From the NCBI GenBank assembly GCA_026770705.1, contig JANJGN010000041.1, positions 1,426,001-1,490,000 on the forward strand: DNA of 64,000 nucleotides. The letters are read 5' to 3'. Below the pieces are notes generated by a model that saw only the letters and a program-made list of their open reading frames with translations, had not been told where the DNA came from and ran no database searches. A program made the translations under genes and the position numbers. Positions 12,101-55,450 of the stretch are shown one piece after another (the first letter of the stretch is position 1; the number at the start of each line of letters is the position of its first letter). This DNA is from Isurus oxyrinchus (Eukaryota).

Positions 12101-14710
12101 ATGGCTATTTCCCCGGTATGGATACACATGGGCATGGATATCATCAGCATAAGTTGTGTCGCGAATGGTGCTGAACTTTGAACAATCCTCAGCGGACGCA
12201 ACTTTCTCCCAGTAGCCCACACCCTACCCACCACACCAAACCTCTTTCTGTGTTTTAAATGGAAATAATTTCATTGATGCAGCAGCTTAAGATTGCTAAC
12301 AGAAACCCAAAATTAAATTTTGATCTATTGCCTGGCGTTTTCAAGGCTGTCAAGACCTTTGACATCTCCATTAAGTCCATCAATACTTGCATTCGAGTTA
12401 GAGAATTGTGAATTGGGGACAGCCAACTGGGCTGTGTATGTAATGCAATTAGATACTTGTTTTTTTTTATGTGTGGTCAAGCATTGCCAATTTGCAATCT
12501 GATCCAAAAATGTAAAAAAACTATTTATCTTTATCCGACTATTTCGCATTACTTCATTCAAAGTTCATCTGAATCATTAACCAACAACTTATTGAAATAA
12601 CATGATCCAAAATGTTAATTAAGCACCCGTTTATAGACCATCAATGCATTGTTATTTCCCTACATTCAAGTTTGCGAAAAATCTACGCTGAGTCTGGACC
12701 ATGTTGCACAGCTTGGAAAACAGTTGATACTTGAAATAACTCTCTATCTACTCATCCCATTGTTTTGCGCATGTGCATTATCCATTCATTAATCAGTGCC
12801 TTCCAAATCTGACCGCGGATTTCGGTCGGAAAGCTATTCAGCACCCTTGAAGGAGCCATGACATCCTCTCCTATAGCAGCGCCAGCAGAACTACAAACAA
12901 AATTTCGGCAGCGAGCCGATTACCCACTTTCGATAATAATTCAAGCTAGAGTTACTTAATTTGATTTTAAATGCCGAAAATAATCTAGTAAACGTGTGCA
13001 TCAAGTTATTACATATCTAGCAGCTACAAATTAGTTCAGAAATATTCACTTAGAAAATATAATCTTCAAAATTCAAATGGACATTCACTATCTAAAGAAC
13101 AGAAAGCATAATGCAACCGTGATTATCTGAGGCTCACGTCAATTTCGCTTAACCTATATAGATGATTGGGTTTCATCAGTAATCAGTATAAATGTCTGAA
13201 GTTAATCTTGTGGAAAATAATGCAGCATTTAATAACGGCGTTAATTCTCGAAAAATGTTCCTGCATTTTGAAAAAAAATATGCATGTTAACAAATAATGC
13301 TAAGATTCATGTGTTTCATGAACCTGGCCAATCTGAAATGAAATAAGCTGTAGAGGATATTAATTTAAACATGGGTGTGATAGGTGTAATGTCTTTATGG
13401 TCAGGTTATCGACAATTCGGAATTTCACTTTTCTGAACATATATTAGTTTAAAGATTCAAATTGATGTCCCCATCACCTTCAATCTTTATCACGACCTTC
13501 CGCACTTGATGCCCAGCAGAAATCAATTTTCAGCTTCATATTTAAAATCACTTCGCACGGATGCTGTGCTTGAGATGCCCTTTCTGCCCTTTCGACAATA
13601 AAGTGAATGGTTTTGCTGCCGATCAATTAATGGGAACTCTGTCCTATCTACTAGGAAGTAAACGCTAGTTATGACCTCAACACAATCACATCATCGAATT
13701 GGTCATTAACTTTGCTTTGCAAGAAATGTGCCCCGATGGCCAATAAACATTGCCCACTCAATCTGATAGCAATGTCACCGTTCCCAGTCCGCCATTAAAC
13801 TGCCCTCTTGATCAGCACTGACTCCACCCTTTCTGCATAGCAATGTTGCTTCGCACTTTCTGCAATGAATTAGCGATGCATTCACCTGAAATAATGCTGC
13901 ACAATGCCCAGCCAGCATATCAATCTTACATTACTCATTCTGACTTAAAACACATGACTGATCAGATCTCATTCATGAATAAAACCACTCACTGTGAACC
14001 TGCATAAGAATGTCACTTTGTACTGATTGTCATTGTACCGCCACCGTGATAACTGCTGTGTAATCTTGCATTCGGCCTTGTCTATGCTGTCTTTTATGTA
14101 GCTCAGTGACCATTTTCTGGTCGTATGTTTTTGCCATTCCATCTTTCATCCTCTCAAGCGTTCAGAGTAGGTTCGTGCTACTGGATAATATTTTACCTTC
14201 AAGCTGAAAGTCCTGTAGGACAGTAATGCTTCCCAGTACTTATCACAACTGTAGAACACCCAGCATGCATTGCACCAATACCTCTTCCAGAGTATAACTC
14301 AACTTGGCACAGATACTATTTTGCGCATTAATTTCCCATTTCACATTGTACCAACACACATGAATTGGCACTTTACACCTCCCATTTACCTTTTAATATT
14401 CACGATGCCCAGCCGTTTGTGTGCTTTCAAATTTTCCAGGTCACATTCGCCCTCAGTAATCTCAATCATTATTAAACAATACTTGCCCAGTATACGTTGA
14501 ATATGGTCATTTCAAATTACGAATTATCAACTGAGGTGTTCCTTCCCTATCCATTTTGATTCGGTCCAGTTTAAATTTAGAACATGCTCGCCTCGGAATG
14601 TAGGTTGTGCATATTTGGGATGAATGCATAATCCTTTGCTGCAACAGGAACAAAATTAGTAATGTTTATCTGTGTCGTCTATCTCCTGCTCTCTTTATCC
14701 CCTCTTACAG

Positions 14711-15618
14711 TTAATCTTGTTGCGATTGTGATTCTTTCCCGAGGAAACTGTGGCCTTTCCAAATGTATTACCCACTATATGATCGCCATGGCCGTGGCAG
14801 ATCTCCTGGTTGTTTGTGCTGAAGTCATACTGAAAAATACGCTGGATATTTATTTCCCTGTTTTATTCTTGACCACGAGCACGGTGTGCCCTCTAAAAGC
14901 GACTGTGACTTACGCAGTCATATCAGCCTCTGTCTGGTTAACAGTGGTGTTCACCTTCGATCGTTTTGTGGTCATATGTTGTCAGAAGCTGCGAAAAAAA
15001 TATTGCACGGAGACAACAGCGGCAGCTGTCATATCAGTGGTGAGTGTGTTGAGTTGTTTGATCAACATTCCCTGGTACTTTGCGTTTGAAACTGCATATA
15101 TAATGGACAATGTAAATCGTGGTTGTGTCCTAACACAGAATTTTTTCAATTCTGCTGAATGGGCTGCATTTGACTTGTTTACCATTATCCTGACGCCATG
15201 TGTTCCATTTATCCTAATTTTGTTGCTAAATGCTTTGACGGCTAGACGTATTTTGGCAGCCACTAAAGTTCGCAGGTGTCTCCGCGTTTGCAGCAAGGAT
15301 TCTGAAATAGAAAGCCGAAGAACGTCCATTATTTTACTCTTCAGTATAACCGGGAGCTTTATATTGCTCTGGACAACTCCGGTTATATATATTATCTCTT
15401 TGCATGTAACAGTCACATCGAATTCTGGCGCAAATGTGCTTCAGTCAGTTGGATCCATGCTTGGGATCCTCAGTTGCTGCACAAATACATTCATTTATGT
15501 GCTGACACAGGCTAAGTTTAGGGAGGAGCTGAAGAGCGGAATGCAGTACCTTGTGAAATTGTGCATAAAATTAGGCAAATTACAGTGGAATACCCGTTCC
15601 CTTAACAGTAGGACATGA
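14711..15618 (+). CDS. Coding exon 2 of a GPR139/GPR142-like class A GPCR (probable G-protein coupled receptor 139-like paralog); full protein 325 aa
   Basis: Acceptor ctctttatcccctcttacAG at 14709-14710. Hydrophobic helices with TM2 AMAVADLL, TM3 TFDRFVVIC (DRY variant), TM4 NIPWYF, TM5 PCVPF, TM6 FILLWT, TM7 SCCTNTFIY and helix 8 AKFREEL; no stops or frameshifts. Confidence 0.95.
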
Positions 15619-24519: not shown

Positions 24520-24771
24520 NNNNNNNNNNNNNNNNNNNNNNNNNNNNNNNNNNNNNNNNNNNNNNNNNNNNNNNNNNNNNNNNNNNNNNNNNNNNNNNNN
24601 NNNNNNNNNNNNNNNNNNNNNNNNNNNNNNNNNNNNNNNNNNNNNNNNNNNNNNNNNNNNNNNNNNNNNNNNNNNNNNNNNNNNNNNNNNNNNNNNNNNN
24701 NNNNNNNNNNNNNNNNNNNNNNNNNNNNNNNNNNNNNNNNNNNNNNNNNNNNNNNNNNNNNNNNNNNNNNN
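24520..24771. other. Assembly gap (252 N)
   Basis: Run of N. Confidence 1.
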
Positions 24772-30075: not shown

Positions 30076-30147
30076 TCCTAGTTCGTATACTGGTTAGTAT
30101 CCCCGCCTGTCACGCAGGAGACTGGGGTTTAAATTCCCGACGGGGAG
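30076..30147 (+). tRNA. tRNA-Asp(GTC), probable pseudogene
   Basis: TCCTAGTTCGTATACTGGTTAGTATCCCCGCCTGTCACGCAGGAGACTGGGGTTTAAATTCCCGACGGGGAG: 72 nt colinear with vertebrate tRNA-Asp, anticodon GTC; substitutions in the D-stem and GTTCGA->GTTTAA in the T-loop. Confidence 0.85.
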
Positions 30148-30402: not shown

Positions 30403-32119
30403 TTCCATTTGTGTCCACTGCTTATGCTGCCTGGGTTCCAGGTGCTTGTGCAGCACATCAATGCCGATGGAGTATTGAGTGCAAGGTTTATATCCGGAGG
30501 TTAGTACATCTCTCATTACTCAAACGTATGAAGCATTAAAAGAGACAGGAGGAGGCAATTCAGCCCATGGAAGCTGCACTGCTTTTCAATTGGAATGTAG
30601 CTGATATGTGGCGGAACTCCATCACTGCTCATTGGCTCTATGTACTTAAACAGTTTCCAAAGTGAAAGCTACCAAATGGAGTTTTTAAAATGATTCATTT
30701 GTTTTCTAAATTAACCTGGAAACACGATGCAGTTAATCCTGGTCTCCTCGTACTACCCATCTCCCTGTAGTCACTTACTGATATACTGCATCATTCATGT
30801 ACAATGTTTCCAAATCCCGAGACCTGCTCATCACCTCCTTATCTCTGAAATCACCTCCTGCACAATACTTAATTCAGGTATTAATAGTTCTCGAATTCAT
30901 ACATCATTTGCTTTCCTTGGCAGCAATGCATTCTGCTGCTGGAGCCTCGAGCTCCTGTATTCCCTCTGTTAGCCTCTCCACCTCGCTCTTCCCATTTTAG
31001 ATAATCCATAAAATAAAATGTTCTCATGTGAACTTCAGGTCGACTATTCTTAATACGTTTAGGGGTGGCTTTTGGTAATTTATCCCAATCTCAGACTTCT
31101 GTATGGTTCCTTGGGGCATTTCTTCACTCACCTGGAGCGCCAAAGGTTTCAACCTGCTAATTGGGCAGTGCAGACGCCTCCGTTCATCTCAGTTTGACAC
31201 GATTGGAGCTCTCTGAATATGGCTGGTCCCATATCCCTCACTTCTAACACAGTCTGGGGACCGTGTGCAGTGCTGATGTCTGTATCCCTCTGCAAGAGCA
31301 CCCTTGGAGAACAGTGCACAGTTCTGGTCTCCATATCCTCGGTTAGATAACATTTGTAGCGCTGTGCACAGTTCTGGTTTCCATATCACTCGGTTAGACC
31401 ACACTTGGAGCGCTGAGGATAGTTCTGGTCTCAATATTCCTCGGTTAGATAACATTTGGAGCGCTTTGCACAGTAATGGTCTCCATATCCCTCGGCTAGA
31501 CCGCACTTGGAGCGTTGTGCACCGATCCGGTCTCCATATCCATTGGTTAGTCGAAGCATGGAGCACTGCGCACAGTTCTGGTCTCATATGTGTTGGTTAG
31601 GCCACACTTGGAGTATTGTGAACAGTCCTGGTCACCATACCACTCGATTAGACCACGCCTGGAGCACAGTACACAGTTCGAGTGTCCATATCCCTCAGTT
31701 AGACTACATAAGGAGCACTGTGCACGCTTGTGGCCTCCATTAGCCTCGGTTCTTTTGGACCGCATGCAGAGCACTGGAAGCAGCGCTGGTCTCAATATCT
31801 CATGTTTAGACAGTACATGGAGCACTGAACACAGCACTGATATTCCTATCGAGATGTTAGATCACACTAGGTACACTGTGCGCAGCTCTTGGCTCCAAGT
31901 GCCGCTATGATATCATCAATGTCCATAGATGAGCTCTCAGTACGCATCAGCAATCAAAAGTGCGCCACACAATTCCATGGATCAATAAATCCCTTTGCAG
32001 GTATGATCTTGTGATTTTGGGACAGTGGAAGGACCTGTAATATGGGAGGATTCAATGAAGAGGAGACTTTGATGCCTTGGGAATGCCGATTCGTTTTAAA
32101 GTGCTGTGGGGCTGCATGA
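30403..32119 (+). pseudogene. Beta-defensin-like pseudogene, copy 1 (exon-1 remnant ~30403-30466; exon 2 32001-32119)
   Basis: Exon 2 after tttgcAG: (G)MIL*FWDSGRTCNMGGFNEEETLMPWECRFVLKCCGAA*, with the same Cys register as copy 4, C1 and C3 changed to F, and a stop at 32012. The exon-1 remnant LLMLPGFQVLVQHINA lacks ATG and GT (this assignment is weaker). PolyA signal decayed to AAGAAA (32249). Confidence 0.8.
31190..31897 (+). repeat. 51-bp CR1-derived minisatellite, ~14 units (intron of copy 1)
   Basis: Unit ~ctcggttagaccacacttggagcactgtgcacagttctggtctccatatcc; 17-aa periodicity in the ORF track; one frame reads LVRPHLEYCEQSWSP. Confidence 0.9.
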
Positions 32120-32479: not shown

Positions 32480-33230
32480 AGGTTCGCCAACCATATTCTT
32501 TGGTTTGTCATGGCCCAATGAAAGGAGCAAGGTACCATGCTTCTTGGCACAGGGGCATATAAGAAGTCCGAGCTTGCACTTGCAATGCTTGCTCAGCATT
32601 GACTCCAGGCACTGTCTTGTCACAAGGCTTGAGGGCAAACAGGGCAATGGGAAACTCCTGCTGACTCCAAGCTGCCTCTCTCCCGCAACTGATTCAATCT
32701 CTAATACTCCATTTTAAACACCACATCGAAAAGCAATGAGCATAACAAAGGAACATAATGTTTTCTGCTGTGGGACCAGCATGTTCATCACCCAGAGTGG
32801 CTCAGGGTCACCGTTACAGACCCATGTGGCAAAGCCATGTAAGGTAGAATAGGACTGAAGCAGGTGAACCAACAAGAAGGAAAATTCTTCGTGGCCTCAG
32901 CATCACCAATCCACCTGCTGCAGAAGCATCTCTCGCTGACGGTGTTGCTATGAATGACCACCGCAAAGCCCTACTGACAACAGCCCTCTGTTTTTCAAAC
33001 TGAGGACGCACTCCTTTGTGTTTTGTGACAAGCATTCCTTTCAACGGGGTAGTTTCAAAAGAGATCACACAGCACAACTCGCAACATCCATGAGGTGCCA
33101 TGGGCCGTCAGCAGTAGCAGAATTAAATTCAGGCACAATCTGCAAGACTATGGCCCGATATGCTCCTCACCCTTCCACGACCATTACCGTTAAACAAAGA
33201 GAAAAGGCATGGTTCTCGGGCAATGCAATG
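32480..33230 (+). mobile_element. CR1/L2-group LINE endonuclease-region fragment, shared downstream of all four defensin copies
   Basis: atgttcatcacccagagtggctcagggtcaccgttacagacc (32781) recurs on the minus strand at ~36750 and ~43740 and, more diverged, on the plus strand at ~50571. Confidence 0.7.
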
Positions 33231-34209: not shown

Positions 34210-34413
34210 NNNNNNNNNNNNNNNNNNNNNNNNNNNNNNNNNNNNNNNNNNNNNNNNNNNNNNNNNNNNNNNNNNNNNNNNNNNNNNNNNNNNNNNNNNN
34301 NNNNNNNNNNNNNNNNNNNNNNNNNNNNNNNNNNNNNNNNNNNNNNNNNNNNNNNNNNNNNNNNNNNNNNNNNNNNNNNNNNNNNNNNNNNNNNNNNNNN
34401 NNNNNNNNNNNNN
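34210..34413. other. Assembly gap (204 N) flanked by CR1 fragments
   Basis: Run of N; CR1-like aaatccccagggtcagat on the left and CR1 3'-type sequence on the right. Confidence 0.95.
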
Positions 34414-37779: not shown

Positions 37780-39316
37780 TCAAAGAGGTTGGCAGCTCCT
37801 GAACTTGAAGCGGAGGTTGCAATTTCCTGTTGGCCCTGTACGCATCACAATGCTCACATGGGAGTCTTCTACAAAACATTCAACCCCCGTCACACAGCAC
37901 GATCGGGAATGGAAAACAGAAAGGAAGAGCTCATTAGTACCGCTGGTCAGAACTGCTGGGCACCCGCATGCACCTGAAACGGTTTTGGCTTAAAGTGCGT
38001 ACATGGAGTCCCGATATGTGAACAGTGGTCCATATGTGGTCTAACCGAGGCATATGGAGACCAGAGCAGTGCACAGTGCTCCAACTGTCGTCTAACCGAG
38101 GGATATGGAGACTGAACTGCGCACAGTGCTCCGATTGTGGTCTAACCGAGAGGTGTTGAGACCAAAACTCTGCACAGTGCTCAAAGTGTGGTCTATCTGT
38201 TGAGTATGGAAACCAGAACTATGTACACTGTCCGACTGTCGTCTAATTGAGGGATCTGGCGATCAAATATATGCTCAGTGCTTCGAGTGTGTTCCAATCG
38301 AGGGGTATGAAGTCCAGAAAAATGCAGAGTGCTCCATGTGTGGTCCAAACGAGGGATACAGAGGGCAGAACAGTGCACAGCGCTCTAGGTATGATCTAAC
38401 CGAGGGATATTGAGATCAGAACTTTGCAGAGTGTTCCGAATGCGATCTCAATGAGGTATATGGAGACCAGAAATTTTCACAGTGCTTAACGTTCTCTCTA
38501 AATGAAAGCATTAAAGATGGGAATTGTGCACAATGCTCTATCTGTGGTCCAACCGCGGGATATGGAGTCCTGAACAGTGCACAATCAGAATGATGTAGCT
38601 TATGCAACAACTTCATGAAATTTCAAATGGTGCCTCAAGACAGCATGTTAGAAAAATGATTTGACAGAGAGTGACATTAACAGGGATTAGTGGAAGGTGA
38701 CCCAATGCTTACTCGAAGATGGTGGATTGAAGGGCTATCACCAGGGAGGAGAGAGTGTTGGATAGTTTTACAGTGGGAACCTCCGGCCTTGGTCCCAATC
38801 AGTTGAAGGCATCGTGACCAATGGCAGGCTAGTTAATATTTCAGAAAGGATTGGAGGCAGAATGTGTGTGGCATAGGTATCTGGACGGCTGTTTGGGTTA
38901 AAGGAGATTACAGAGAGAGAGCGGGACGAGACAATGGAGACATTGGGAAATGTCATGTATGATTAATTCAAGATATCACCAAGGGAAAGCTCCTGGGTGG
39001 TTGATAGTTGAGCTTGGGTCATTAATGTGCGCAGTTTTTGAAAAAAAAGGCTCACACTGAAACTCACAGCTTTCTGTTTGGACAGGATTTTAATGGTCAT
39101 GGAACGAAGATTGTCCAATGGTGTTAAGACAGTTGTCAGCCGTGATCCAATTGAATGCGTGTATAGGTTTTTGGGGCTGAATGGGCTTCTCCTGTTCCAG
39201 AGAATTTTTCTAGACTTTGACAACTCAGAGATAACCTGCGTGGATAACCTACCGATAAGCTGGGACTCCAATAGCTCCAGCAGTCAAAGTACCGAGACCA
39301 GTGCTTTCCACCTCAT
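37780..39316 (-). pseudogene. Beta-defensin-like pseudogene, copy 2 (exon 1 39253-39316; exon 2 ~37780-37916)
   Basis: TATAAA at 39366-39371. Exon 1 MRWKALVSVL*LLELLESQLI + G|GTAGGT (phase 1), with premature TGA at 39284-39286. Exon 2 FHSRSCCVTGVECFVEDSHVSIVMRTGPTGNCNLRFKFRSCQPL*, with C3->S, the terminal CC lost and the acceptor mutated. Confidence 0.8.
38003..38585 (-). repeat. 51-bp CR1-derived minisatellite, ~11 units (intron of copy 2)
   Basis: Reverse complement of the 31.2 kb unit (ggtctaaccgaggggatatggagac...gcacagtgctcc). Confidence 0.9.
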
Positions 39317-39371: not shown

Positions 39372-41939
39372 TGAACAGATACAGAATTCTGTCGTTAATA
39401 ATTGCAGACACACGGTGAAGGTTAGCTCAACTATGTGCATGTCAAAGGAACACATCACTAACTGAGATGGACAGTAACTGGAATCCACGTCTAAATGTGT
39501 CTCCCAAATCGGATTTTATTAATCAGCAGAGACACTGATAAATGTAATGATTGACCAGGTGAAGTATTACAGGAATTCTTCACTGTGAAAAATTTAGAAT
39601 CATTCAGCAGTGATGGAGGCCATTTGGCCCAACGAGTCTCTGCTGGTTCATTGAGAGGTTTACCGAATCATACCATCCCCATAGCTTCTCATCCCCCATC
39701 GCCCTGTCATTACCTTCCCTGTCAATTATTCATATAATTTCTCTTTTGAAAGGTGTGACTGAATCTGCATTTGTTACCTTTTCAGGCAGCACGTTCCAAA
39801 TCACAACATCTCGCTGCATCATAAATACATTCTGTTCATCTTTCCTCCACTTACTTTGTGAATTATCATTAATATATTTCTACTGCTTTCTCAATCCCCC
39901 ACCCTCGATTGTACCCCACTGTTATTACTGGAAGAAGAGTTGGGGAATTACACCTGATGCCATGGGACCAATAATTATCCAGCGATTAGTATCAATGATA
40001 CAGACTCTCTAGCCATTACGTCACTGGTGTTTGAAGAGCTTGCTGTGGCCATATTGAGTTCTTTGTGTCCCGCCTGACAGAAGAGATGGCAGTTCAAAAC
40101 TAATCCACTGCCGTGTTCTTAACTCTGGTGAAATCTGCGGTTAAGCTGCTTCTCCAGAATTCCTGGTCTTTCTTTGAACTAATTCATCGAGGCGTCATGG
40201 AATTCGAACTCAATGTGGGAGGCATCCAGAGAGAATACCTGCCGACCTCTGAGAGCCTGTCCCGCCAGGGGGTACAGGCTTTTTCGGGGGATGTTGATGG
40301 CCCTGGTCTTTGGGACAATGGATGTGAGTTCCGATTCCCGCATTGGAGCGGGAAAATGCGAATGTGCCCTTGGTATTTCCTGACCTCCCTCCCCACCATA
40401 GTCAATAGGTTGACACAGCGGCACTGAAGTAGGCGCTGATGTTGGTACTTGATTCAATAGCAGTGGGGCAGGTTTCATTGGTCTGCACATGTGTCAGTGG
40501 ACCAAACACACTGGACCTTCCTCATCCCACTGCAAATCCCCTCTCCACCTCTGAGCCGTGAACAGGCCACGCAACACATGGCTCTCCTACAATGCCTGCT
40601 CCGTTGGCTGCACTTCCCGAAAGAACAAGCATTCCTATAATCTACCAACGTTTGAATAGCTCTTGCTGCCATGGTGCCATGGTTACTTTCCCCCTGCACT
40701 CTACAGCCACCACTTCCAACCTTACTGGCCGCCAGAGCCTGTTGCACATTCAGGAAGCCTGATGCTCCTCCATTTCTTCTTCCTCTGTTCCCCATGCCTG
40801 CCACACTCGCAGGCAGCCCTCCTGTCCCTAGCCACTGATCAAATCAGAAGACCCTGCCTGAATAATGTGACTGCCCCCTAGTACAAAGTGCCCAGGCAAC
40901 TGTCCCACTCCCAGGGGCATCACTGTGTCCGCGGCTGGGCCTCCATGTGACACTCACTGCCACCCTGCCTCTTGCCTTGCAAGTTGTTTCTCCATTTCTC
41001 TCTCTCACGCATTCTCTCTCCACCAAACCCATGTCTCTGTTTCTCCACCACTTTCCTTAGTGCATCCTTTTCTGAACCCCTTGCTCAGTTCCTCACTCTC
41101 TCATCTCCATATCTCGATGACTATCTCTTGATCATATTTTCATTGATTCACGGGACGTGGGCTTTGCTGGCTGGGTCCAGAATTTACTGCTCATCAGTAA
41201 TTTCTCCCTTGAGAAAGTGATGGGGGAGCCACCTTCTTGAACTGCTGCAGTCCATGTGGTGTCCAAACACCCACCGTGCTGTAAGGAATGGAGTTAAATC
41301 TTCATGCTCTGTTCCACTGTTTGGCTATTTTTGTCACCATTGATCTTCCTTCTCCAGCTCCATCTTCCACTCATGCCAACTCTGTCTTTATCTCGCCTTC
41401 TCCCTTTCTCTCTCTCACTCCACCTTCCACATCTGCACTGATGGTTAAATATTTCAATTTTATTCCCCTGCTTGTTGGTTAATAATTTACCCCTAAAGCG
41501 GAACTGCCCTTTCTCCAGTCGCCATCCTGTCTGACTCCAGATAGGAATGAGCTGTCCCTGGATATGATCCAGAAGATCAATGCCTTCCTTTTGGGGACAA
41601 TATGCAATCCCTCAATGAATGATTGTCTACATATCATCAGATTAACTGATCTAATGCTGTGAAATAATGCAAGGAGATGTTTTATCAGTAGTGTATATGT
41701 CTATATATATTTATAGTGTGCCAAATGGAGACTACAGCCCCATCATTTCACCCAATGCCATGAGGTTCCATTAGATGCTCGTTGAATTTCGAGTCCTCGC
41801 AGGCCCACCCTCTTCTGACAGTATCCTAATGGGCTACCAAATCTGGTGAGCTGGCTCTGCCGCTGGTGATGATTATTCGCAGGGACAGTGATGGGAAATT
41901 CTGAGCCATTGGCTTTATGGTATCATTCGGTGAGTTTAG

Positions 41940-42500: not shown

Positions 42501-44564
42501 GATGGTCAGCTCCTGAATTATTCTTCATGAGTTACCATCTGCAACAGCCTACAACTCATGGATGCACCCACAAACTGACTGGTGCACACCAGTCTATGTC
42601 CTGTGTCCATATTCCTGCCTTAGCCCCGTTCCCCTCAAAACATTTGACGTTCAAACATCTCCCCATCTCATATTTAAAGGTACCATCTTCCTTTCACTAA
42701 CTGCCATTTGTGGAAGAGAGATTCAACTCTCTGCTACCCTTTGTGTGTCGATGTATCCTTTTCCGAGAATAACAAAGCAGCGTGAATATCTTCTACATAT
42801 CCAACTTCGCTCGAATCTAATCGAATATTTAAGATTCTTGACCAAGGACAACAATGAATCTGGTTTCATACAACAATCTAACCTTAGCTTGTACCCTATA
42901 TTTTTATTCTGCTCCAAGTGCAGAGTGCTCAGACTGTTCTGCGATGAATTCCCCTCAAATTACAAATCGATTCTTCAGGCTATTCATCTAGCCAGTCAGC
43001 ATGCACTTTCTGGCTCCTGATTAATTCTGATGCTGGAGCCATTGGAGCCCAAATGTGGCCAAATGCAATCTCCGTTCAAACCTTATCTTTTTACTCTACT
43101 CAAACCTGCATGAAAGCAAATGACTGTTAAAGAGAAGCCAAGTCAAAGGCATCTTAACAATATTCCAATAATACCTACATATCAATGAATTTCATCAATA
43201 ACACTATGTACAGTAGAATTGCTATTGTAGGTAACAATAATTGCACCAATGTATCAATGAGCTGATTCCTAACAATGTTAGAACATCGGTTTCTTTTCGA
43301 TATGCCTTACCCTGCACTTGACACTCTCTCCTGCATTCTTCAGTGAATCAGGCTTGGTCGCTTGCTTTGAACGTTATGGTGGTGTCAGGAATATGGCAGG
43401 CAATATCCTTGCCGGTTGTATTTGAAGTTAATTTCGCTGCTGCTGATGGCCCTTGACGCCTTGTGGATGTTGAGATTTTAGCTGTGTGGTCTGGTCTGAA
43501 TCTATCCCATTGAATCCAATGGTTGCCAGAAAATACAATGGAGAGTATCCTCAGTGTGAAGACAGGAGTCCGTCATCACAAGGGCTGTGTGGTGGTCATT
43601 CCTATCAACACTGTCAGGGACAGATGCAACTGTAGCAAGTAGATTGCTGATGAAGATGTCGTGTAGAAACATCGCTCTTGTTGGTTCTATTCTGCCATTC
43701 AGGGCTCGGACACCTAGGTCTGTAACGGTGACTCTGAGCCACTCTTGGTGATGGACATGCAGGTGCCACAGCAAAGAACATTATGTGCATTTGATATGCT
43801 CAGTGTTTTTTCCATGTTGTGTTTAACATGGAGGAGTATCTATTGAACAGATTCGGTAAAATGGTATGCGGGAGTCAGCAGGATCTTCCGTTTCTATTGT
43901 TTGCCCACCTGTGTTGAGACATCAGAGAGACTGGAGTCTGTGTTGAGCACTCCTGTCATAAGCCTACAGTTATGCATTTCTCTGTGTCAACACATCGGGA
44001 AGAACTTTTCATTCACTGGGTCATTACTTACCCAGGGATGTGGACGATGAGCCTGTGACATTGCCTTTTCAGTTATGATTATTCCAGAGTGATTATGTAG
44101 GAGCAGCCGGGTGTCAAAGTGGCCCTGCCATTACCTGACCTGCCTTCACTCCATGCTGATATGGTGATGCACCGATCCGAGTGCCAATTTGGACATGGAC
44201 AAGAGGCAGTGATCGATGCAACCAGTTTTATTCACATGATGCAGAAAGCAGTGGGCTGGGGTCACTGCATTCTCAGAATGTATCAGAGCAGGATTTATGG
44301 AATTACAGTTAGCTCCAGTAGGAGCCTTGGACATCTCGCACATAGGGACATGTTATGTTTAGGCAATTACTTTTTTATGCAGCAAGTGAGCCAAAATATG
44401 AAGTATGCCAAGAACCACCTCTCATATATTTAACATTGGACAAATCTGCAGGTGCCTCCAAAATCATCACACTCTCTCCGTTGTCCATGGAAACAGAAAT
44501 GAATAATTCAGTGCTACAAACTTTTAAAGCTCTGCCGTATCAGGCTGCCATGTAACGAATTTCT

Positions 44565-44840
44565 CTGGAGACCAGAATTGTGCACAGTTCTCCAGCTGTG
44601 GTCTAACCGACGGATATGGAGACCATAACTGTGCGTGCTACTCCAATGTGTTCTAACCGAGTAACATGGAGGCTGGAACTGTGCATAGTTCTCTAAGCGT
44701 GGTTGATTCGAGGTATATAGAGGCCAGAGCTCTGCACAGTGCTCCAAGCATGGTATAACCGATTGATATGGCGGATGGAACTGTGTACAGTTCTCCAGGT
44801 GTGCTGAAAGCGATTGTTATGGAGATGGGACTGTGCACAA
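44565..44840 (-). repeat. 51-bp CR1-derived minisatellite, ~5 units (intron of copy 3)
   Basis: ggagaccagaattgtgcacagttctccagctgtggtctaaccga repeated. Confidence 0.9.
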
Positions 44841-45449: not shown

Positions 45450-48400
45450 GGTGTTGACAATGCCTTGACATGAAGCGATTAATGTCCATCATGTTGTAGG
45501 AAATTATTTAAATGCTGGGATTGTTGTAGTGCCTCTGTCTATGTTTGTGTCTGTGTATCTTAACTGGATGAAAGCCAGAGAGGCTGGTTGATTGATGTGC
45601 AGTAGTTTTGGATTTTAGTTAGATAAAGAGAAGCAGTAAAAGGTAAAATGGAATGCATATTTGTTGAACAAACCATTCAAAAGATTGGTAAAATGTTGCT
45701 CCTAGCTACGTGACACCAAGCAATGTCTTTGCATTGCTAATAAAATGGTTGGAACGAAAGGATTATTGTTAACAGAGGTAAAATTAAAGAAAAACAAACT
45801 AGTAAAGCAAATGAAAATTTGCATTCAAAGGGAAAGCTAGATTTAAGCATAAATTAGTTTGTACATACGAGTCATTGACAGCTAAGATCAAACCATGTTG
45901 TCAGCTTGGAGCTGTCTCTGCGAAGAAACAAATTGAAATGAACCACAATTTGAATTCCTAAGTTCAAATGTGCTTTGCCTGGTGTCAATACAAAGTCTAC
46001 TAGTTATTGGTGCCTTGGTGAAAATTTACCTGGGAGCAATTAATTTCAGAAATTGTTTAAAATGTATTAAGTTAATAATTTGTTTACATGTGTATACGTT
46101 ACAATTTGTTGTTAATTTAATAAATGTTTACTTTAGTTTTACATAAAAACCTCGTGAAGATTGATCGTTTTATTTCCGAATTCAGAGTTGCATCTCAAGC
46201 ATACCAGTATAGGCTATGATAGTTCTTCAATTTTCCCTTTTGATTTGTGACAAATAAGCTTTTATCAACTGCTGGGTTGTTAGAGCCTATTGTAGTAGAA
46301 GAACCTGTTGAGACAGAATCAGCAGAGCTTGGGCAGAAAGAGAATCCTAGTGTTTCCAAACTGTGTGGTGATTAAACCATAGGTGAACTCATTTACACAG
46401 GAAGTGGAATAATCTAACAGACAGGCAGACAATGCTGAAATTCAATCGGTTGGATCAATCCTTGAAAATATTGCTCAGGATGAGAGGGTTGAAGAGGATA
46501 AGACTGAAGTATTCAGTTCATTAGTGGAACTAAATATGCAATGCCCATTCGTAACACAGGTAAACCGCACCGTTTAATCTGAAGCAGAAGCAGAATGCAT
46601 TACAGAGTATATTTACATTCAGAACAATGTTAATCAAGAAATTGAGGCAGCGTCTTGTTCATGTAGATAGAAAGTGGACAGTAGTGCACGAAATAGTGAT
46701 ACCATCTGTGTACTGAAATTAAATTTTGAGAGCACCTCATAAAATTCCAATCGCTGTAAATGTGGGAATTAGGAATACCCAAGCTAATGACAATGTTGGA
46801 AACAATCTCTTGGACTTGATTACATGAAGATGTACACAAATTCTGTCAAACATGTCCCATTTGTCAGTTGTGACTTAAAGCAATAGCAGCTGTTAAACCT
46901 GCACATTTAGTGCAAATGCCAGCGTTTGAGGAACCATTTAACAGTTTCCTGATTGATTGTGTAGGACACCTCCCTCAGACTAAAAGTGGTAATCAGTACT
47001 TACTGACAGTCATATATGTGTCCAGAAATTTACAGAAGCTTGCCTTTAAGGAAAAATGCAGCAAAGTGGAGTAAGTCATTTTATATTTGAATGTATGGAT
47101 CAACAAAAGAAATACAGTCGAATCAGTGTTCGAAATTCATATCACAGCTGTGTAGATAAGTTATGGACAGCGTAGGAATATAACAATTTATGAAGTCAGC
47201 GGATCTCCCTGAATCACAGTGTGCCTTAGAATGGTGGTAACACTGCGTAAATGCTATAATTAGCGTATGTGTTCAAGACTATCCACATGGTTATTTTAGA
47301 AGGGATTTTATTCTTTTTGTTTCCTTCAGGGGCATACTTAATGTGTCAAAAGGATTCAGTCCTTTTGAGTTAATTTATGGTCATGCAATGAGGGGAAAGT
47401 TCAAACTGATTCAGGCCAAATTCATGGGGCAAATCTCAGATACTTCTTTTTTGGACCATGTGGCGAATTTCAGAGAAAGATTGAGGAAGGCATCTGAGCT
47501 ATGCAGGGAAATGTTAGTTACACCTCAGCAAGTGCCGAAGGAAAATACAGCTTAAAGGACAAAGTTTCGTAGTTTTTTAGCTGTGGACAAATTGTTAGTT
47601 TTGTTTCCAGTGTTAGGTGAGCATTTGAAGCCAATGTTTAGCAGGCTTTACCAGGTGGAAAAGGGGCTAAGTGTGGTAATCTATGTGGTAAAGTACCCCA
47701 GGTCGTAGGAAGAGCCAGCCGGTGCATCATTGAAATTTGCATAAACATATTTTTAATAGACAGGATAAACAGGAAGAGGTACTTGTAGTTGTAAGTAAGG
47801 GAACAGAGGTAAAGGGTAAGGATTCTGAACCTGACCTACATCTGATTTAAATGCATAATGAGGAAGTACTGAGGAGCATAAATTTGTTCTTAGGTTACCT
47901 TCCAGAAAAGCGCCAGGGTGATTGAAAACTGCTATTGCAGTCATACAAAAGAATTGGGAAATACATATTCGGCTGTACATGATACTGAGTAGGGGAATTA
48001 AGCTTCAAAAAGGCAACACGTTTAGAGATGAAATCCAGTAAAATTACCAATAGAACAGGAGGAAATTCAATTTCTGCTTCAACATGACAGGATAAGGCCT
48101 GGTCACAATAATTGGAGCTCAGCCAACGTAATAGTGCGGAAAACATTTGGGTTACAAACACACTATTGATTACCGAAAAATGAACGCCATAACAAAGGCT
48201 CATTCATATCACAGGCGACGATCAGACGAGCTAGCAAGGAATCCAGACAGTGTACACTTACCACAAAAATTGACTTGCTGAGAGGATACCCTTATGTGAA
48301 AGGGCATCAGCGTTTCTGATGCTGGATGGTCTACATCAACGCCATTATTGAAAGCTCTTTGGCATGAAAAATAAATGCACCAGCAGTGCTTCCTGGAAGG

Positions 48401-48450: not shown

Positions 48451-48802
48451 AATGACAGAGCTATGGAGAATGAGTTGATATGGAGTCGGCAGATCGATAG
48501 CTCTGTCAATACGCCAAGAGAGGCTAAATGGCCAAAATGGCCTTATTTTGTGCAAAATGATTCTTACTTCTAACACAGTGACGTTGTTTATTAAACCTTC
48601 TCCACTTCAATCATTACACCGCCCTGTCTCCCTCTTAATTACCACACATCCGACTTGGAATAGTTATTGCGTCGTCATCACTGTTAAAGTGCAGCCAATC
48701 CCCATTGTGTGCATGTTATTATTAACTAGTGAACAGTCGCTCAATTGCTAAAAAGAACATTGGTGTCTGGTTATCTCCTTGTGACTCTCAGGAGCTCAGG
48801 AT

Positions 48803-48866
48803 ATGATGTTGAAAGCTCTGTTTGCAGTACTTGGATTCCTGTTGCTGGGAGAGACTCTCTCTATCT
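48803..48866 (+). CDS. Beta-defensin-like copy 4, exon 1 (signal peptide MMLKALFAVLGFLLLGETLSI); 3' boundary uncertain
   Basis: The 5'UTR gtgactctcaggagctcagg and 21 codons align with copy-2 exon 1; K followed by a hydrophobic core. No GT at the homologous donor; the frame runs on to TAG at 48911. Confidence 0.6.
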
Positions 48867-49665
48867 CGCTCCAAGAGATTGTGCAATTGGGAGTTGAGTG
48901 TGTCTCTCAATAGTGATTCTTGAGCAACATTGATTGGAACAGGAGTCCATTCAACCACTCGAGCCTGTACTATCACTGAACTGGTACAGGGCAGATAGTT
49001 GCTTTACTCCAACTGCCTAGAACAGTCAAAATGATTTCCAAATGCAAATTTACTATTTTTAGTCTGGTGCATTTTCACACAATTCGCTAAATTGTTTTTT
49101 TTTTATTTAGATAATCAGCAGCGAGGCTTATCATAGAAACGGTTCTTCTTTTCCCCTCGTATTTCTCATCTGCGTTCGACCCCTTGGTGATGTATTCCCT
49201 GAACACAATACCGTGTGGACAAATCCTTCCCTATTTCCCCTTTTCCAATTGTTGTCTCCATCTCCTTCCCCGTCTTGTCCAGCAGTTTCACAACCGTGAG
49301 GGGATACCTGCGCCCCAAAGATACTGTCAGAATGTGCACCAACATTGGAGGCTGTGTCTTCAGATGCCCTTGAATTCCCTCCCTCTGTTCATGAGGCTTG
49401 GTATAAGTTGTTTTTCATCATGTTCCTGTTAAGTACACTAATTGGTTTTATATTAAATTGAAGATGCGACAGAAGTTGTTTTCATTCTGGCTGTGCAAAG
49501 CCCAAACCACCATTTTCATCTGTGAGGCGCTGTCTTGAATACAATGCACAGATAAAGTGGCTCTGATAGACCACACTTGGGGAACAGTGCACATTTTTCC
49601 TGATTTGAGCACAATCGACTTTCCTGGCTCGTGGCATCAATAACCTCCTCCTGTCTCTTCACCAG

Positions 49666-49814
49666 GTACATTACTGGGATGTCCCAGCGTTGGAGGGAAA
49701 TGTAGATTCAGCCACTGTAAGCGAGCTGAGACCCGAGTCACAAATAAATGTCTTCCTTTCTTCAAGTGCTGCATGAAACATTCAGTCACAAAAAGTATAC
49801 ATGTACCATTCTGA
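49666..49814 (+). CDS. Beta-defensin-like copy 4, exon 2 (mature peptide GTLLGCPSVGGKCRFSHCKRAETRVTNKCLPFFKCCMKHSVTKSIHVPF)
   Basis: Good acceptor cctcctgtctcttcaccAG, phase 1; C-x6-C-x4-C-x10-C-x5-CC with GxC and the conserved Glu between C3 and C4; 9 K/R versus 1 E; AATAAA at 49922-49927. Confidence 0.85.
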
Positions 49815-51235
49815 ATCCCGTCTGAGGCTCCAGCTGAAGCTGACAGTCTTTTCTGTAAGTCACGCTCTGCCACCTGCCCTAGAAGCAGCCCCACGTGGCC
49901 CACTGTTTTCTGCTTCATGTGAATAAAACCTGCTGCATTGATCAACTCCTCTTGTCCGTTGCTCATTTCACATTTACATCACCACGTACTGAACAGGGGA
50001 TGAAGGGGGAGGTTGGCAAATGGGCAGGACCACTTTGACATGGGATAATGCCACAACAGATCCGGCCTCAGAAACACACAATTTCCAACCAATGCCCCAG
50101 GCTCTTCCGGCACAATCCAGGATCTGCCCTGCACCACGAGTAGGGCAGAGGCATCCGGGGTAACGGCGGAGTGGCAGACAGTCCAGTGGGGGCAATAATG
50201 CGCAGCACCCAGCATTTACTGCAGTGTCTATGGTGCCTCACAGAGCATCAGGGAGAAGACATAAAACGAGGAGAAAAGGAAAATAATGTGGATGCTGCTA
50301 ATCTGACAAAAAAACATAAACATTTGGAAACGCCAAGCAGATCTAAAAGCAGCTGAGGGGAAGAAATAAATCCACAGATAATTGGAATCCGTGTAAATCT
50401 TCCTCAGAGCCTTGGTTCAAAGGAAGTTTCATTCAGACACAGGAAAGAAAGACTCTTGCGGCTTCCCAAATTTCATCTCTCCTCAGTTGGTGGATAGTTT
50501 GTCCTGTGTGCTGAACACCAAGTTAAAGGAGTACTGGGAGAGCAGATTGCACGCTGATGGCGAGTCCCCGATGTTCCTTACCAGGAATGACTCAGCAGTG
50601 GTACGGCTCACGATTTGTTTGGGCCATGAAGAAAATGGACGGCAAGGATTCAAGAACAGGGTTCCTGATTACCTTCTCGAGGGCAACTTACATTGAGCAG
50701 CAAAAATGTGGCCTAGCCACTACACCTCCATCAGGAGGAATAATAATAGGGCATATCTGTCAGGGTTGCTCTGTGCCAGTTGGTGAAAGAACCGGCAGCA
50801 TGCAAAAAACAACATGTCAATATTTTCCTCACCAACTGTCGGTTTTGCAAATGCCAATGTCATCTTAGTTGGAGCGATCACTGCACAAAGCTTTGGAGCA
50901 GAAGTGTTGCAATCACACTGAGGAATTATTCCATTGTGTTGAGCGTCACTCCCACAGTGTTAGATGTATCACATTCAGAACGGAACTAGCAGCGCTATAC
51001 TGTGCGTATGTGAGGCACTGTGGGCCATCAGCAGCAGCGGAATTATGTCACAACCACAATCACCAATCATGGCCCAGCATATACCCCAATCCACCATAAC
51101 CACCAAATTAAGAGTGCAAACATGGCACAATGCAGAATGCAGAGACCATGTCAGGAGCAGCATCAGGTATGCCAAAACATCGATGGGTTGAGCTGTAGCA
51201 CATGCAACAGCTGCAAGTATATTTGCGGGAGGGTA

Positions 51236-51545
51236 TGGTGTTGTGGTATTGTCACTGATCTATTGACCTAGCGATCCAAAGTAATGCACTGGTGTCTTGA
51301 ATTCCAATCCTGCTCCAGCAGGTGGATAAATTCAATGAAAAACAGAATAGCTGGAAATAAAACTCTATTGGTGAACATGACAACATTGTCAATTGTCGAT
51401 TGTCGATTGCTGGAACAGCGCTTCCTTCTGGTTTCACATGTGCTGTCCTTACCTGTTCTGTTCTGCTGTGAATACACATCCACAGCAATATGTGGTTGGT
51501 AGAAATGTCTCTGGGGCTGACCAAGGTAATAAAGCCTCGCCAATC
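51236..51545 (+). mobile_element. tRNA-derived SINE (same family as 37065-37381)
   Basis: Head tggtgttgtggtattgtcactg; body ctggtttcac...gtccttacctg...ccacagcaatatgtggttg; tail aataaagcc. Confidence 0.7.
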
Positions 51546-52749
51546 GCGCACTCACACCATGAATAAAATAATAATAACAAATTCATTCATGTAGGTGAGA
51601 TAGACTGAAGTCAGGGCTCGTACACAAAACGGTTCAGCGTAGCTCAAACCTCTGAATTCCAGTCACATCTATCTGCTTCCAATTAAAAAAAAAGGAAGGA
51701 GTAGGGCTATTCAACTGTTCCCATTTTAAATAGTGCAGCCGGTGTGGCCAGTCACTAATTACCTCCAACCTGAATTGACAAGGTCATTCTTGTCTGCTAA
51801 GCTCTCCAAAAATTGTCAGAGATACCAATATTTAGATTTCACCCCACGGGATGGCACGTAATGGCTTAAAGACCTCTGTTAAGCACACTGAGAAACTTGC
51901 GGATAATATTGCCTCAGAATGACAGCTCATTGCTCACACCTTGCTAAAGAGTTTCACGTAGCAATGCCTGTTTTCTTCATATCTTCTCGAAAACGCTTCT
52001 AATCCCACCAATCAACTACGCTTTGTAAGTACCATGCAATAGTTGGAATATTTAGCAGTTTTGATATCAAACTGTACGACCCTCGTCACGTATTGTCCTC
52101 CAAATACTCACATCTTCTCTCGTACGAATCACAACCGGAACTTTTAGCTCTGAGGGAGGAACCACACCCACGTCCCTGAATACCTTAACATTCCTTTGTT
52201 TAGATTTAATACTCTTGCCTCTGATTAGAACACAACATTTGTAAAATTAATGTAACATTCTTACATATGATGATCCCTCTTTACTTAGGGCTCCTTCACA
52301 TCAAGATTTTTAATTAGCACTTTTCAGTTACATACCCAACTGAGGCACAACATCTATCAGACAGGTTAACAATAACCGATTTGAATATTTAACAAACCAC
52401 AATCGGTTGAACTATGAGATGTTTAGCCATCTGGGCAGAGTTGCGTGGAATTTTGAGAGATGCAACCAATGACAGCACGAAGAAAGATAGGGAAGGAGCC
52501 GGAGGGCGGATCGGAGACAAGCTTACTGCAATTCAAGCAAATTGGCAATGGAAAGAACAAATGGTGATGTGAGGGACTATAAAAAAAAATACACAGAGTC
52601 TGTTACAATTTTGGAGGAATTTTCTGATACTGAATGTGGGAAATTGCAACGGGGCTTTCAAAAGAGAATCTGATCATCATCTGAAAGGAGACAAATGTAG
52701 GGTCCCAGGGAAAGGGAGGTTGAACAGCTTGGTGACAGCCGCCAACCCA

Positions 52750-55450
52750 AGTGATCTAATTTTGCTTACTAACCGTTTTGTGTGTGTCTTTCTACAAAGC
52801 TTACAATAAAATATCTAAAGATACCGGTTCCCCTTTAACTATTCGCATAGTTACATCCTCGAAAAGTACCACCAGGTTGGTTAAGCATGATTTGCCTTTC
52901 CTAAATCCATGTTGCCTTTTCCCAATCCTACCATTATTATCTATGTATCATATTATCACATTCCTTGTTCTAGGTTCTAGCATTGTTCCTAGCAGTGGTG
53001 CAAATATGAAAGGCCTGTTGTGTTCCCTTTCCTCCCTAAATCCTTTCTAAAATAGTAGGGTAATATTTCAATCGGTAGAGCTTCCTAAGAATGCTGAACA
53101 GTCGCCAACAATGCATCTGTTATTTCGACCGCCACCTTTTTTCAGCCCTCCTGGGTATGGACCATTAGGCCCAGGGTGATTTCGCACTTTAAGCACCATT
53201 AATTTCCCTAATACTTTTTTCTCACCTGAATTAAAATCTGGCATACCCTCTTTTAATCTAGCCCTCTGCTTCGCAATCATCTGTGGGATGATTATTTATT
53301 TTCTTTCTCAATGACAACAGACATAAAGTATTTGTGAATCTCTGGTATTTCCTTACGACATGAAATAAACTCTCCTGACTCGGGTTGCAATTGCACATCT
53401 GTTTATTTTTGGTAATCTTTCCCTTATTTTACATACAGGAGCATTTCAATGTTTTTATGTTTCTGTGTGGTTTACTCATAATTTCCCTTTCTTATTATTT
53501 TTCTTGGTGGTCCTTAGCAAAATTCTAAAATGCTCCCAAATCTCAGATTTACTATTTATCAAAAAGGACTCGTCCACTGCCGTTCAATTTGAAGACTTTC
53601 CTTCCCAGGCTCCTGTGCGTTAAAAATGTATTTCTGTTGCATAGTTAGTATTCCTTGCTTAAACATGAGACATTGCTTGTCCAACTCCATATCTTTCAGC
53701 AAGATTTCCCAATTTCCCATCGCCAATCACTTCCCCAAACCCACCCTACGAATTCCTTAACAATCTCTTTCTTTATATTAAGACCCTTTTCTCTGATTGG
53801 AACATAACACCTTGAAACCTAATGAACCCTTCTATCATATTACGTTCACTCTTTCCAAAGGGCTCCTTTACATCAAGAGTATGACTGAGCAATGTTCAGT
53901 TACCCAAGGCTTGATCTGAGAAAACACGTTCACTATTTGTTTTTTCAACGTGCTGCTCTAGAAAACCATCTTGCAAATGTCCTAAGAATTCGTTTCCAAA
54001 AATATTTGAAGGAATTAGTTTAACCCACTCAGTATGCATAGAGAAATCCCCCACGGTTAGAGTTCAGCCCTTCATACAAGCAACTCTAATGTAATGATTT
54101 ATTCGGAGATTTACATTACCATTGCAAATTGGTGGACTATAAATAACTCATTGCAATGTTTCCTGATCCCTGCTGTCCCTTAGTTGCACCCAAACCGATT
54201 ATACATTTTGACCTTTATAGCACCAGTCATTTCTCAGCAAAGTATAAACGGCCTATATTATGACCCCAGTAATTCATCCCAGCTTCTTGTCCTTCCAGAA
54301 TGTCACATGGCCTAGGACATTACTTTCACAGCATTTGTTTGCTTGGAGCTATGGCTCTCCACTGTCTATCAGGCCAGACATATTAAATTATATTTTTGTT
54401 AGAATTCACGTGTTTTCATGCGAATGCTGCAGGCATTCAAATTCAGAGCCCTTAATTCATTGTTTTATTACCGTTTTTTTCCAAACAGTATCTCTGCCTG
54501 CTAGCACAGCCCTCAGATTGCAATTACTTCTCCTTCCTTCCATTAAGTAATTACTTTCACCTTTATATCTTCCTTGATATATTATCTTGACATTTCAATT
54601 TTATTTATTCCAACTCCCCGAGATGATCTCTTCACATTTTTGCTATTTTAAAACCTTCTGTACTTCCTTAGTACTATATCTATAGCTTGCAAACTGGATC
54701 CAGCATGGTTAAAGTCTAGACTACCCTAATGGTAAAGCTCCTAATTTTAGAGTACTGGTGCCAGTGCGACTACATTGGCATTGGGACACGTATTCATCTT
54801 CCTAATTGTATTTGCCTTACACCAATTTTGGCAGCACACTGTTCACAGTCATGGATTGTTAACATTTGTTTCTGCTGTTTTACCTCGTGCCTATATCTCC
54901 AGAGTTGCAATGCATAATATACTTCCTTGTTGTTCCAATGTTATTTTCTACTTACATGGACAACGACCCAGTGAATCCATTCCCTCCAACGTGAAGATCC
55001 TCTCCAGCCTGAGCCTGTCGCTCAAAACCTAGAAGCTTGTAGGTAACACAGCAGGCTGGACTCATGTTACCAATTGCAGTGAACACAACATATCCCACTG
55101 ACTACACTGCCGCCTATCACTGCTATGTTCCTCTTAGCTCTACCCGTTCGAAAGATATTCCTCACCATTGTGTCATGATCATTCTGCACATCTACCTTGC
55201 AGTCTTCCCCCTTCGTACAGGTTGAAAGAGCTTCAAACCTGTGGGAAAGGTCATGGATAGAGGCTCCTTGAAGACTCGGTGCTGAGTCCCCTCATCCACC
55301 AGACAAGCACTCAACCTCCTGCCCCTGACCATTGACCAACCTGAACTTGTCTCCAAATTAAGGGGAATGAATGACTTCTAGAGCAAAGTGTCCAAGCAAA
55401 ATTTGCTCCCCATTACCTTCCTATAAACGGCTGACAATTTCCACAGCTCA
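52750..55450 (-). mobile_element. CR1 LINE fragment (ORF1 to ORF2 RT start)
   Basis: ORF 53068..53280(-) KVLGKLMVLKVRNHPGPNGPYPGGLK; colinear with the CR1 fragment at 3.0-4.4 kb. Confidence 0.8.

Follow-up and report, generated by a model that had tools for sequence, protein, structure and literature searches.

A candidate beta-defensin gene of the shark Isurus oxyrinchus with an apparently damaged ancestral splice donor

The window analyzed here is a 64-kb stretch of Isurus oxyrinchus DNA (contig JANJGN010000041.1, forward strand) within which beta-defensin-like gene copies, numbered 1 to 4, are clustered. Copy 4 is a two-exon gene: exon 1 encodes a signal peptide and a short pro-segment, the intron is in phase 1, and exon 2 carries six cysteines. 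Copies 1 to 3 are dead, all three having stops or broken acceptors. Alignment with copy 1 indicates that the exon-1 donor of copy 4 is damaged in place by a G-to-T change at intron position +1 rather than absent. Ordinary gene loss is the most likely account of the lesion, and we lean, if only slightly, toward copy 4 being a null or leaky allele, or an early pseudogene, through this change. The probabilities worded here and below for the several readings of copy 4 were obtained by inference using assumed priors.

The exon-1 donor of copy 4

The coding part of exon 1 (48803 to 48893, +) comprises 30 codons plus 1 nucleotide (nt) and is followed by a 772-nt intron that runs from TT to AG (48894 to 49665, +). 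Exon 2 opens within a split codon, of which it holds two bases, and a phase-1 donor is therefore needed. The sequence-only reading had considered this donor missing, taking the G|GTAGGT of copy 2 (39253/39252) as the site that copy 4 had lost. Counting codons does place ATC G|GTAGGT opposite the ATC TCGCTC of copy 4, but a pair hidden Markov model (pair-HMM) gives the match of that site to position 48867 of copy 4 a posterior of 0.05 to 0.14 (11 parameter sets), and its match to 48894 reaches at most 0.01 to 0.03. The wrong site had been compared: the ancestral donor is present at 48893/48894, as GAG|TTGAGT (intron positions 48894 to 48899, +), and bears the change at +1.

The evidence comes from a remnant of exon 1 in copy 1 (30409 to 30505, +), which has lost its start codon but keeps an open frame and a canonical phase-1 donor, GAG|GTTAGT, at 30499/30500. 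It was found with a profile of the 5' regions of copies 2 and 4 (30416 to 30537; E 0.13) and sits immediately before the common intronic repeat fragment (30544 to 30682; E 2e-10). The +1 G of its donor aligns with position 48894 of copy 4 at pair-HMM posteriors of 0.88 to 0.97 in 12 of 12 parameter sets. An ungapped comparison of copies 1 and 4 over the interval between donor and repeat anchor finds 38 of 67 nt identical, against 13 to 23 at the 16 other offsets; the distance from +1 to the anchor, ACAGGAG, is 45 nt in each of these copies and 40 nt in copy 2. The same G falls on 39252 of copy 2 with a posterior of 0.00 (8 of 8 parameter sets). Its best partner there is the CAG|GTTA at 39235 (0.31 to 0.58), followed by a 5-nt deletion. 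The alignment of copy 1 exon 1 therefore places the ancestral donor at 48893/48894 and makes the pro-segment of about 10 residues ancestral. An extended pro-segment had been noted for copy 4; exon 1 of copy 1 is two codons longer still. The phase-1 intron position is common to copies 1 and 4, with signal and mature peptides on separate exons.

Two other routes to the homology were set aside. The copy 2/copy 4 pair alone is ambiguous and goes against 48894 (posterior ≤0.01), and omission of a 13-nt repeat-bounded stretch of copy 2, which gave positions 48893 to 48895 only 0.27 to 0.38, was superseded by exon 1 of copy 1.

Relative to copy 1, the donor of copy 4 has T for G at +1 and G for T at +3; copy 2 also has T at +3. 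Pairing with U1, counted over 11 positions, is better at the TT site than at any other exon-1 candidate (7 Watson-Crick and 2 G-U pairs of 11, −6.0 kcal/mol). Sites with at most one mismatch from AG|GTRAGT make up 78 of 127,088 window positions, and the chance of finding one among 16 phase-1 positions is about 1%, a post hoc figure.

The rest of copy 4 is largely as the sequence-only reading described it. The ATG at 48803 opens a hydrophobic N terminus (7-residue Kyte-Doolittle means up to 3.1) and the signal peptide appears intact, as judged by hydropathy only. It would span about codons 1 to 20, up to a putative cleavage site, and the pro-segment of about 10 residues follows. Over codons 1 to 21, copies 4 and 2 share 41 of 63 nt and 10 of 21 residues. 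The acceptor is strong, consisting of a polypyrimidine tract and CAG (49644 to 49665, +) that ends in CCAG| at 49665/49666. The coding part of exon 2 (49666 to 49814, +), the source of the weak beta-defensin matches reported below, holds all six cysteines (49680 to 49772; spacing 6-4-10-5-0), a C-terminal tail of 13 residues past the CC, and a TGA stop (49812 to 49814). The strict six-cysteine pattern occurs once in the window, compared with 1 of 150 simulated 64-kb windows of like composition. The net charge of about +8 (K+R−D−E) is that of the whole 48-amino-acid (aa) exon-2 peptide, tail included. The Cys1-to-Cys6 core has +6 and the peptide up to the siblings' stop +7, three histidines being left uncounted. 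The AATAAA polyadenylation signal is present as well (49922 to 49927, +) but says little about function, as one is also retained in copy 3, which is dead. The two donor-like sequences downstream of the compared site, G|TTGAGT (48893/4, phase 1) and T|GTGTCT (48899/900, phase 1, adding a seventh cysteine), are found where that reading had placed them.

Predicted products and the state of the gene

GT dinucleotides that compete with the TT (48893 to 48901, +) lie in the −1, +5, and +7 registers. Cutting before TT (+1) gives a 79-aa precursor and is the sole register that yields a six-cysteine product. The −1 GT (48892/3, phase 0) overlaps the TT and leads to 66 aa without cysteines, and the +5 GT (48897/8, phase 2; U1 pairing of −5.1 kcal/mol) leads to 44 aa, also without cysteines. 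The T|GTGTCT at +7 gives 81 aa with seven cysteines but has 4 Watson-Crick pairs and −2.4 kcal/mol. Intron retention gives 36 aa, terminated by an in-frame TAG (48911 to 48913, +) that also restricts donors farther downstream. No phase-1 GT is found in exon 1 upstream of 48893. GC donors were considered, and every one is weak or out of frame; micro-exons were rejected for their weak donors.

The scenario that we favor begins with purifying selection on copy 4 that would have lasted long after its siblings died and was followed by the G>T change at +1 of the ancestral donor. U1 would still pair best at the TT site. Without a GT at +1/+2, most transcripts would be cut in the −1 or the +5 register, or would retain the intron; the TT has three GTs to compete with inside 7 nt, two of them out of frame. 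The dominant products would be the cysteine-free ones (66, 44, or 36 aa), with at most a minority of transcripts cut at TT to give the 79-aa precursor. The allele would be null or strongly hypomorphic, and either fixed, as an early pseudogene, or segregating. Any peptide still made would, judging from its family, be secreted and carry three disulfides, which in beta-defensins pair Cys1-5, Cys2-4, and Cys3-6, acting as a cationic membrane-active or chemotactic host-defense peptide. An absence of transcripts had been put forward as the sign of a pseudogene, but that test is too coarse, because the out-of-frame registers and intron retention would still yield transcripts, with every stop lying in the last exon or in the retained intron. 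The options listed with it (functional gene, pseudogene or null allele, and base-call error) are the right set, although their framing changes with a donor that appears damaged rather than absent.

The principal alternative is that copy 4 functions with a TT-AG intron, U1 acting in the normal register, cutting before TT happening often enough, and the 79-aa precursor being under selection. We consider this unlikely, if not markedly so. The gAG TTGAGTgt of copy 4 is the best U1 match available, in a U1-complementary context with sub-maximal pairing, and it keeps GT at +5/+6, in agreement with the published conditions for TT sites: accurate +1 cutting at TT in human reporters needed GT at +5/+6 and sub-maximal U1 pairing (PMC6280755). 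Human TT-AG introns (ETV1, FBXO9, and FANCC c.165+1G>T) likewise have xxG|TTRAGT, GT at +5/+6, and a −1 GT that overlaps the TT. The natural ETV1 site, aAG TTAAGTtg, is cut at +1 only (PMC6280755), and its intron is constitutive (PMC4176328). Both frames, the six cysteines, the acceptor, and the AATAAA are intact, and no other of the window's four copies survives. The similarity to the human introns is not complete, as copy 4 has G rather than A at +3, whereas every TT site in section 6 of PMC6280755 has A there. Moreover, cutting at −1 was also observed in the same reporters, and in Roca 2012 as cited (PMC6280755), and in copy 4 both −1 and +5 are frameshifts. TT ranks second among non-canonical donors in the human reporters, but non-canonical use there is strictly enhancer dependent (PMC6280755), and TT-AG introns are very rare: the human count of high-confidence non-canonical U2/U12-like introns, all types together, is only 184 (PMC4176328). 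Human GT>TT donor mutations mostly disrupt splicing (Krawczak 2007 as cited), with FANCC as a leaky exception (PMC6280755). All of these data are from human cells.

The time available for a loss was examined by a simulation of neutral decay that followed the start codon, frames, cysteines, and acceptor of copy 4 (3000 runs for each d, in substitutions per site). Without indels, copy 4 was intact in 79% of runs at d = 0.01, 0.30 at 0.05, 10% at 0.1, and 0 of 3000 at 0.4. Adding an assumed indel load lowered the share to 69% at d = 0.01 and 2% at 0.1, again with none at 0.4. The branch leading to copy 4 in an unrooted tree of the 3' untranslated region (UTR) is about 0.38 substitutions per site, and since no run stayed intact at d = 0.4, copy 4 was therefore under selection for most of that branch. 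The 95% bound on the time since loss is d = 0.08 to 0.13, with a median of 0.02 to 0.03. A very recent loss, as had been suggested, is thus possible but not required, the intact frames setting only a bound of less than about 0.08 to 0.13 substitutions per site. At the mutation rate of the epaulette shark (7e-10 per base per generation; PMC10587355), the bound and the median amount to at least tens of millions of generations. The lack of a second coding lesion in copy 4 (without indels, the neutral probability of staying intact falls from 0.30 at d = 0.05 to 0.10 at d = 0.1) weighs against loss of the gene, as do the U1 match at the TT, its +5/+6 GT and sub-maximal pairing, and the constitutive ETV1 intron.

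An assembly or base-call error at 48894 would make copy 4 an ordinary working gene with a canonical GT donor. A single base off consensus in a coding path that is otherwise intact is what such an error would leave, and the assembly is unfinished, with two N gaps in the window (252 and 204 nt). We nevertheless judge this improbable, as the 318-codon receptor open reading frame elsewhere in the window is free of frameshifts and stops and genuine gene death is common at the locus (3 of 4 copies). A substitution error at any one given consensus base is rare.

Two other routes to a working gene have far less in their favor. Cutting after 48899 at the weak canonical +7 GT would use the only phase-1 GT of the exon-1 frame and would keep the defensin frame in an 81-aa precursor with a seventh cysteine in its pro-segment. 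This is very unlikely, given U1 pairing that is poor and below that of the out-of-frame +5 site, a position that is not the ancestral one, and an odd cysteine. A hidden middle exon that restores the frame after the phase-0 GT donor would make copy 4 a three-exon gene, and combinations are formally open with acceptors at 49283 or 49286 and donors after 49325 or 49421. Those donors (ACT|GTCAGA and CAT|GTTCCT) are weak, each combination adds at least one extra cysteine, and copy 1 has a direct phase-1 donor for the phase-1 acceptor, so that we regard a hidden exon as scarcely credible.

Two further features of copy 4 are likely derived and speak for the favored scenario. At the fourth codon past the CC, copy 4 has TCA (49782 to 49784, +) where copies 1, 2, and 3 have TGA, TGA, and TAA. 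Past this codon its bases match the siblings' 3' UTR, with 27 of 46 nt identical to copy 2 without gaps; the same ungapped 46 nt give 14 against copy 3 and 16 against copy 1, both of which need gaps. The simplest reading of these alignments is that the tail represents stop read-through, which would have added 10 residues from bases that belong to the 3' UTR of the siblings. Sea bass precursors end 5 residues past the last cysteine (PMC8231796). At the TATA-box position (48749 to 48754, +), copy 4 has TAAAAA and copy 2 has TATAAA (39371, −), a change that likely arose in copy 4. Several points count against this polarity. Copy 4 stands farthest from the others (UTR identity of 0.54 to 0.60, versus 0.64 to 0.65 among copies 1 to 3), the four-copy UTR tree is star-like and unrooted, with a bootstrap of 42, which leaves the polarity of the tail unfixed, and the intron of copy 4 holds one degenerate unit of a 51-nt repeat (49567 to 49596, +; E 0.012) where copies 1 to 3 hold arrays. 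The TATA comparison depends on a single sibling, copy 2. Alternatively, the stop may have been gained once, in an ancestor of copies 1 to 3.

Likeness to beta-defensins

The copy 4 peptide is beta-defensin-like and probably a vertebrate beta-defensin, on evidence that is weak but consistent. Its top match in the PDB is avian beta-defensin 3 (7lzl; E 0.014 for the single sequence), in which all six cysteines align with one 1-residue gap. A three-copy profile scored lower than the single sequence (7lzl, E 0.2). PF13841 (Defensin_beta_2) is the only Pfam family that the peptide matches, at 12.7 bits (E 0.17), or 13.7 bits without the tail (E 0.084), below the gathering cutoff of 22.2 bits, so that we do not assign it to that family; copy 3 separately matches PF00711 (Defensin_beta; E 0.088). 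All three Atlas matches shown are beta-defensin clusters (0.76 to 0.81) and serve as a lead only. A single-sequence AlphaFold model of copy 4 was poor (predicted local distance difference test score of 52.8 and predicted template modeling score of 0.26), with no Foldseek match and 0 of 48,161 chains at Z ≥ 2, and its quality is too low to speak for or against the three-stranded antiparallel beta-sheet of beta-defensins. No relatives of the exon-2 peptide were found among proteins of 26 to 84 aa, and there were 0 at E ≤ 0.001 among 1.84 billion representatives; the exon-1 frame has no relatives among proteins of 23 to 74 aa and no usable Atlas match.

Like vertebrate beta-defensins, copy 4 combines a signal peptide, six cysteines ending in CC, and a small cationic mature part, and it lies in a tandem cluster with gene birth and death. 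The size of the prepropeptide is similar to that of teleost beta-defensins, and the proregions of 5 to 15 aa in olive flounder beta-defensins are a precedent for the pro-segment (PMC8231796). Differences from the teleost genes are also evident. Exon 1 of copy 4 is long, with 91 coding nt compared with 55 and 58 in sea bass defb1 and defb2 (PMC8231796); teleost beta-defensin genes have three exons, with the cysteines spread over two, whereas copy 4 has two coding exons and all six cysteines in one (PMC8231796 and PMC3978493); and teleost beta-defensins have charges of +1 to +5, compared with +6 to +8 for copy 4 (PMC3978493). The placement of all six cysteines in one exon is as in mammals. Alpha-defensins and cryptdins also have a pro-segment and give weak sequence matches (E 1.4 and 2.5), from Cys2 onward only; they are described as more restricted to mammals (PMC8231796). 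The short pro-segment and the Cys1-Cys2 spacing of copy 4 fit beta- rather than alpha-defensins. A 6-residue Cys1-Cys2 spacing fits beta-defensins. Big defensins, in which a hydrophobic N-terminal domain precedes the beta-defensin-like one, were considered and rejected, as there are only about 10 residues between the signal and exon 2 and no big-defensin profile is matched by either exon.

A cysteine-rich frame at 51131 to 51244 (+) also ends in CC and has the loose defensin pattern but not the strict one. It has no Pfam match and no homology to the copies, and its pattern match is probably due to chance.

The cluster, its surroundings, and their significance

Exon 2 and the 3' UTR are common to all four copies, and in all four, exon 2 starts two bases and four codons ahead of the Cys1 position. 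Exon 2 of copy 1 (32001 to 32119, +) has a premature TGA, and four of its six cysteines remain. Copy 2 has a TGA at codon 11 of exon 1 (39236 to 39316, −; its likely homologous donor is the CAG|GTTA at 39236/39235), and its exon 2 (37780 to 37908, −) has an acceptor changed from AG to AT, an internal TGA, and a frameshift. Copy 3 has an acceptor changed from AG to TG, a TAA after Cys3, and Cys4 replaced by Tyr (exon 2, 44367 to 44485, −); its exon 1 was not found in the window. Identities among the four copies are low, at 0.54 to 0.65 in the UTR and 0.38 to 0.50 in the coding part of exon 2, from which it follows that the duplications are old and that the coding exon diverged faster than the UTR. 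Faster evolution of coding exons than of UTR is usual for defensins.

Repeats accompany the copies. An old repeat fragment at the 5' end of the copy 4 intron (48938 to 49110, +) is also found in copies 1 and 2 and partly in copy 3 and supplies the anchor for the donor alignment. The arrays of the 51-nt minisatellite in the introns of copies 1 to 3 (31203 to 31897, +; 38003 to 38584, −; and 44566 to 44840, −) have about 13, 12, and 5 to 7 units, which resemble the 3' part of a CR1 long interspersed nuclear element. An inverted pair of about 560 nt with 73% identity (32590 to 33155 and 43399 to 43949) lies downstream of copies 1 and 3 and probably belongs to the duplicated unit. Copies 4 and 3 are 85% identical over 60 nt surrounding the polyadenylation signal (49898 to 49957 versus 44197 to 44256), compared with 60% for the whole UTR. 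A short match to the profile of the copies' distal 3' flank (40355 to 40420, −; E 0.0003) may be what is left of a fifth copy, or else a dispersed repeat. Exon 1 of copy 3 is missing from the interval in which copies 3 and 4 face each other head to head; an open frame there (47241 to 47555, +) has no Pfam match at E 0.01 and resembles an integrase remnant of a long terminal repeat retrotransposon. Assembly gaps occur at 24520 to 24771 (252 N) and 34210 to 34413 (204 N); the second falls between copies 1 and 2 of the cluster and may hide a further copy.

The window is about 36 to 49% GC. Its one clear gene is an intact single-exon rhodopsin-type receptor (14662 to 15618, +; PF00001, E 5.5e-19). 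All 120 of the matches listed for it are from sharks and rays, with the top identities in Carcharodon carcharias (79%) and Cetorhinus maximus (76%), and it is one of a receptor family that is expanded in these fishes and carries the annotation "probable G-protein coupled receptor 139." Pfam searches of 171 of 171 stop-free frames of at least 75 aa found this receptor and two sub-threshold matches only and no neighbor typical of defensin clusters, at a length limit that short exons would escape. A degenerate tRNA-like sequence (30076 to 30147, +) about 260 nt upstream of the copy 1 exon-1 remnant is the only Rfam match between 28000 and 54000 (RF00005; 30.6 bits, cutoff 29); ARAGORN does not call it, and it resembles tRNA-Asp. 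An AT-rich inverted pair of about 170 nt with 75% identity lies at 52162 to 52331 and 53735 to 53903.

The antimicrobials listed for sharks and skates in section 14 of a review of fish immunity are only transferrin, squalamine, and kenojeinin I (PMC6795676). No cartilaginous-fish beta-defensin was found in the titles or abstract openings listed by literature searches on defensins in these fishes, a search in which subscription journals are mostly uncovered and which an earlier description may have escaped. Two exons have been proposed to be ancestral for beta-defensins, the third exon of teleosts being a gain (PMC8231796), and the layout of copy 4, with two exons and six cysteines in one, agrees with that proposal. 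It is doubtful, but not far-fetched, that copy 4 still works as a shark beta-defensin gene, the last in its cluster to do so, by means of a constitutive TT-AG intron. If so, it would represent a type of chondrichthyan beta-defensin absent from our searches, with a two-exon layout and an ancestral pro-segment, and would support two exons as the jawed-vertebrate ground state. If its TT donor works, it would add a rare natural TT-AG intron and a non-mammalian test of the rules for TT donors. The locus, as a candidate chondrichthyan beta-defensin family, matters more than the donor lesion, and the sequence of copy 4 can be used as a seed for finding intact orthologues in other shark genomes.

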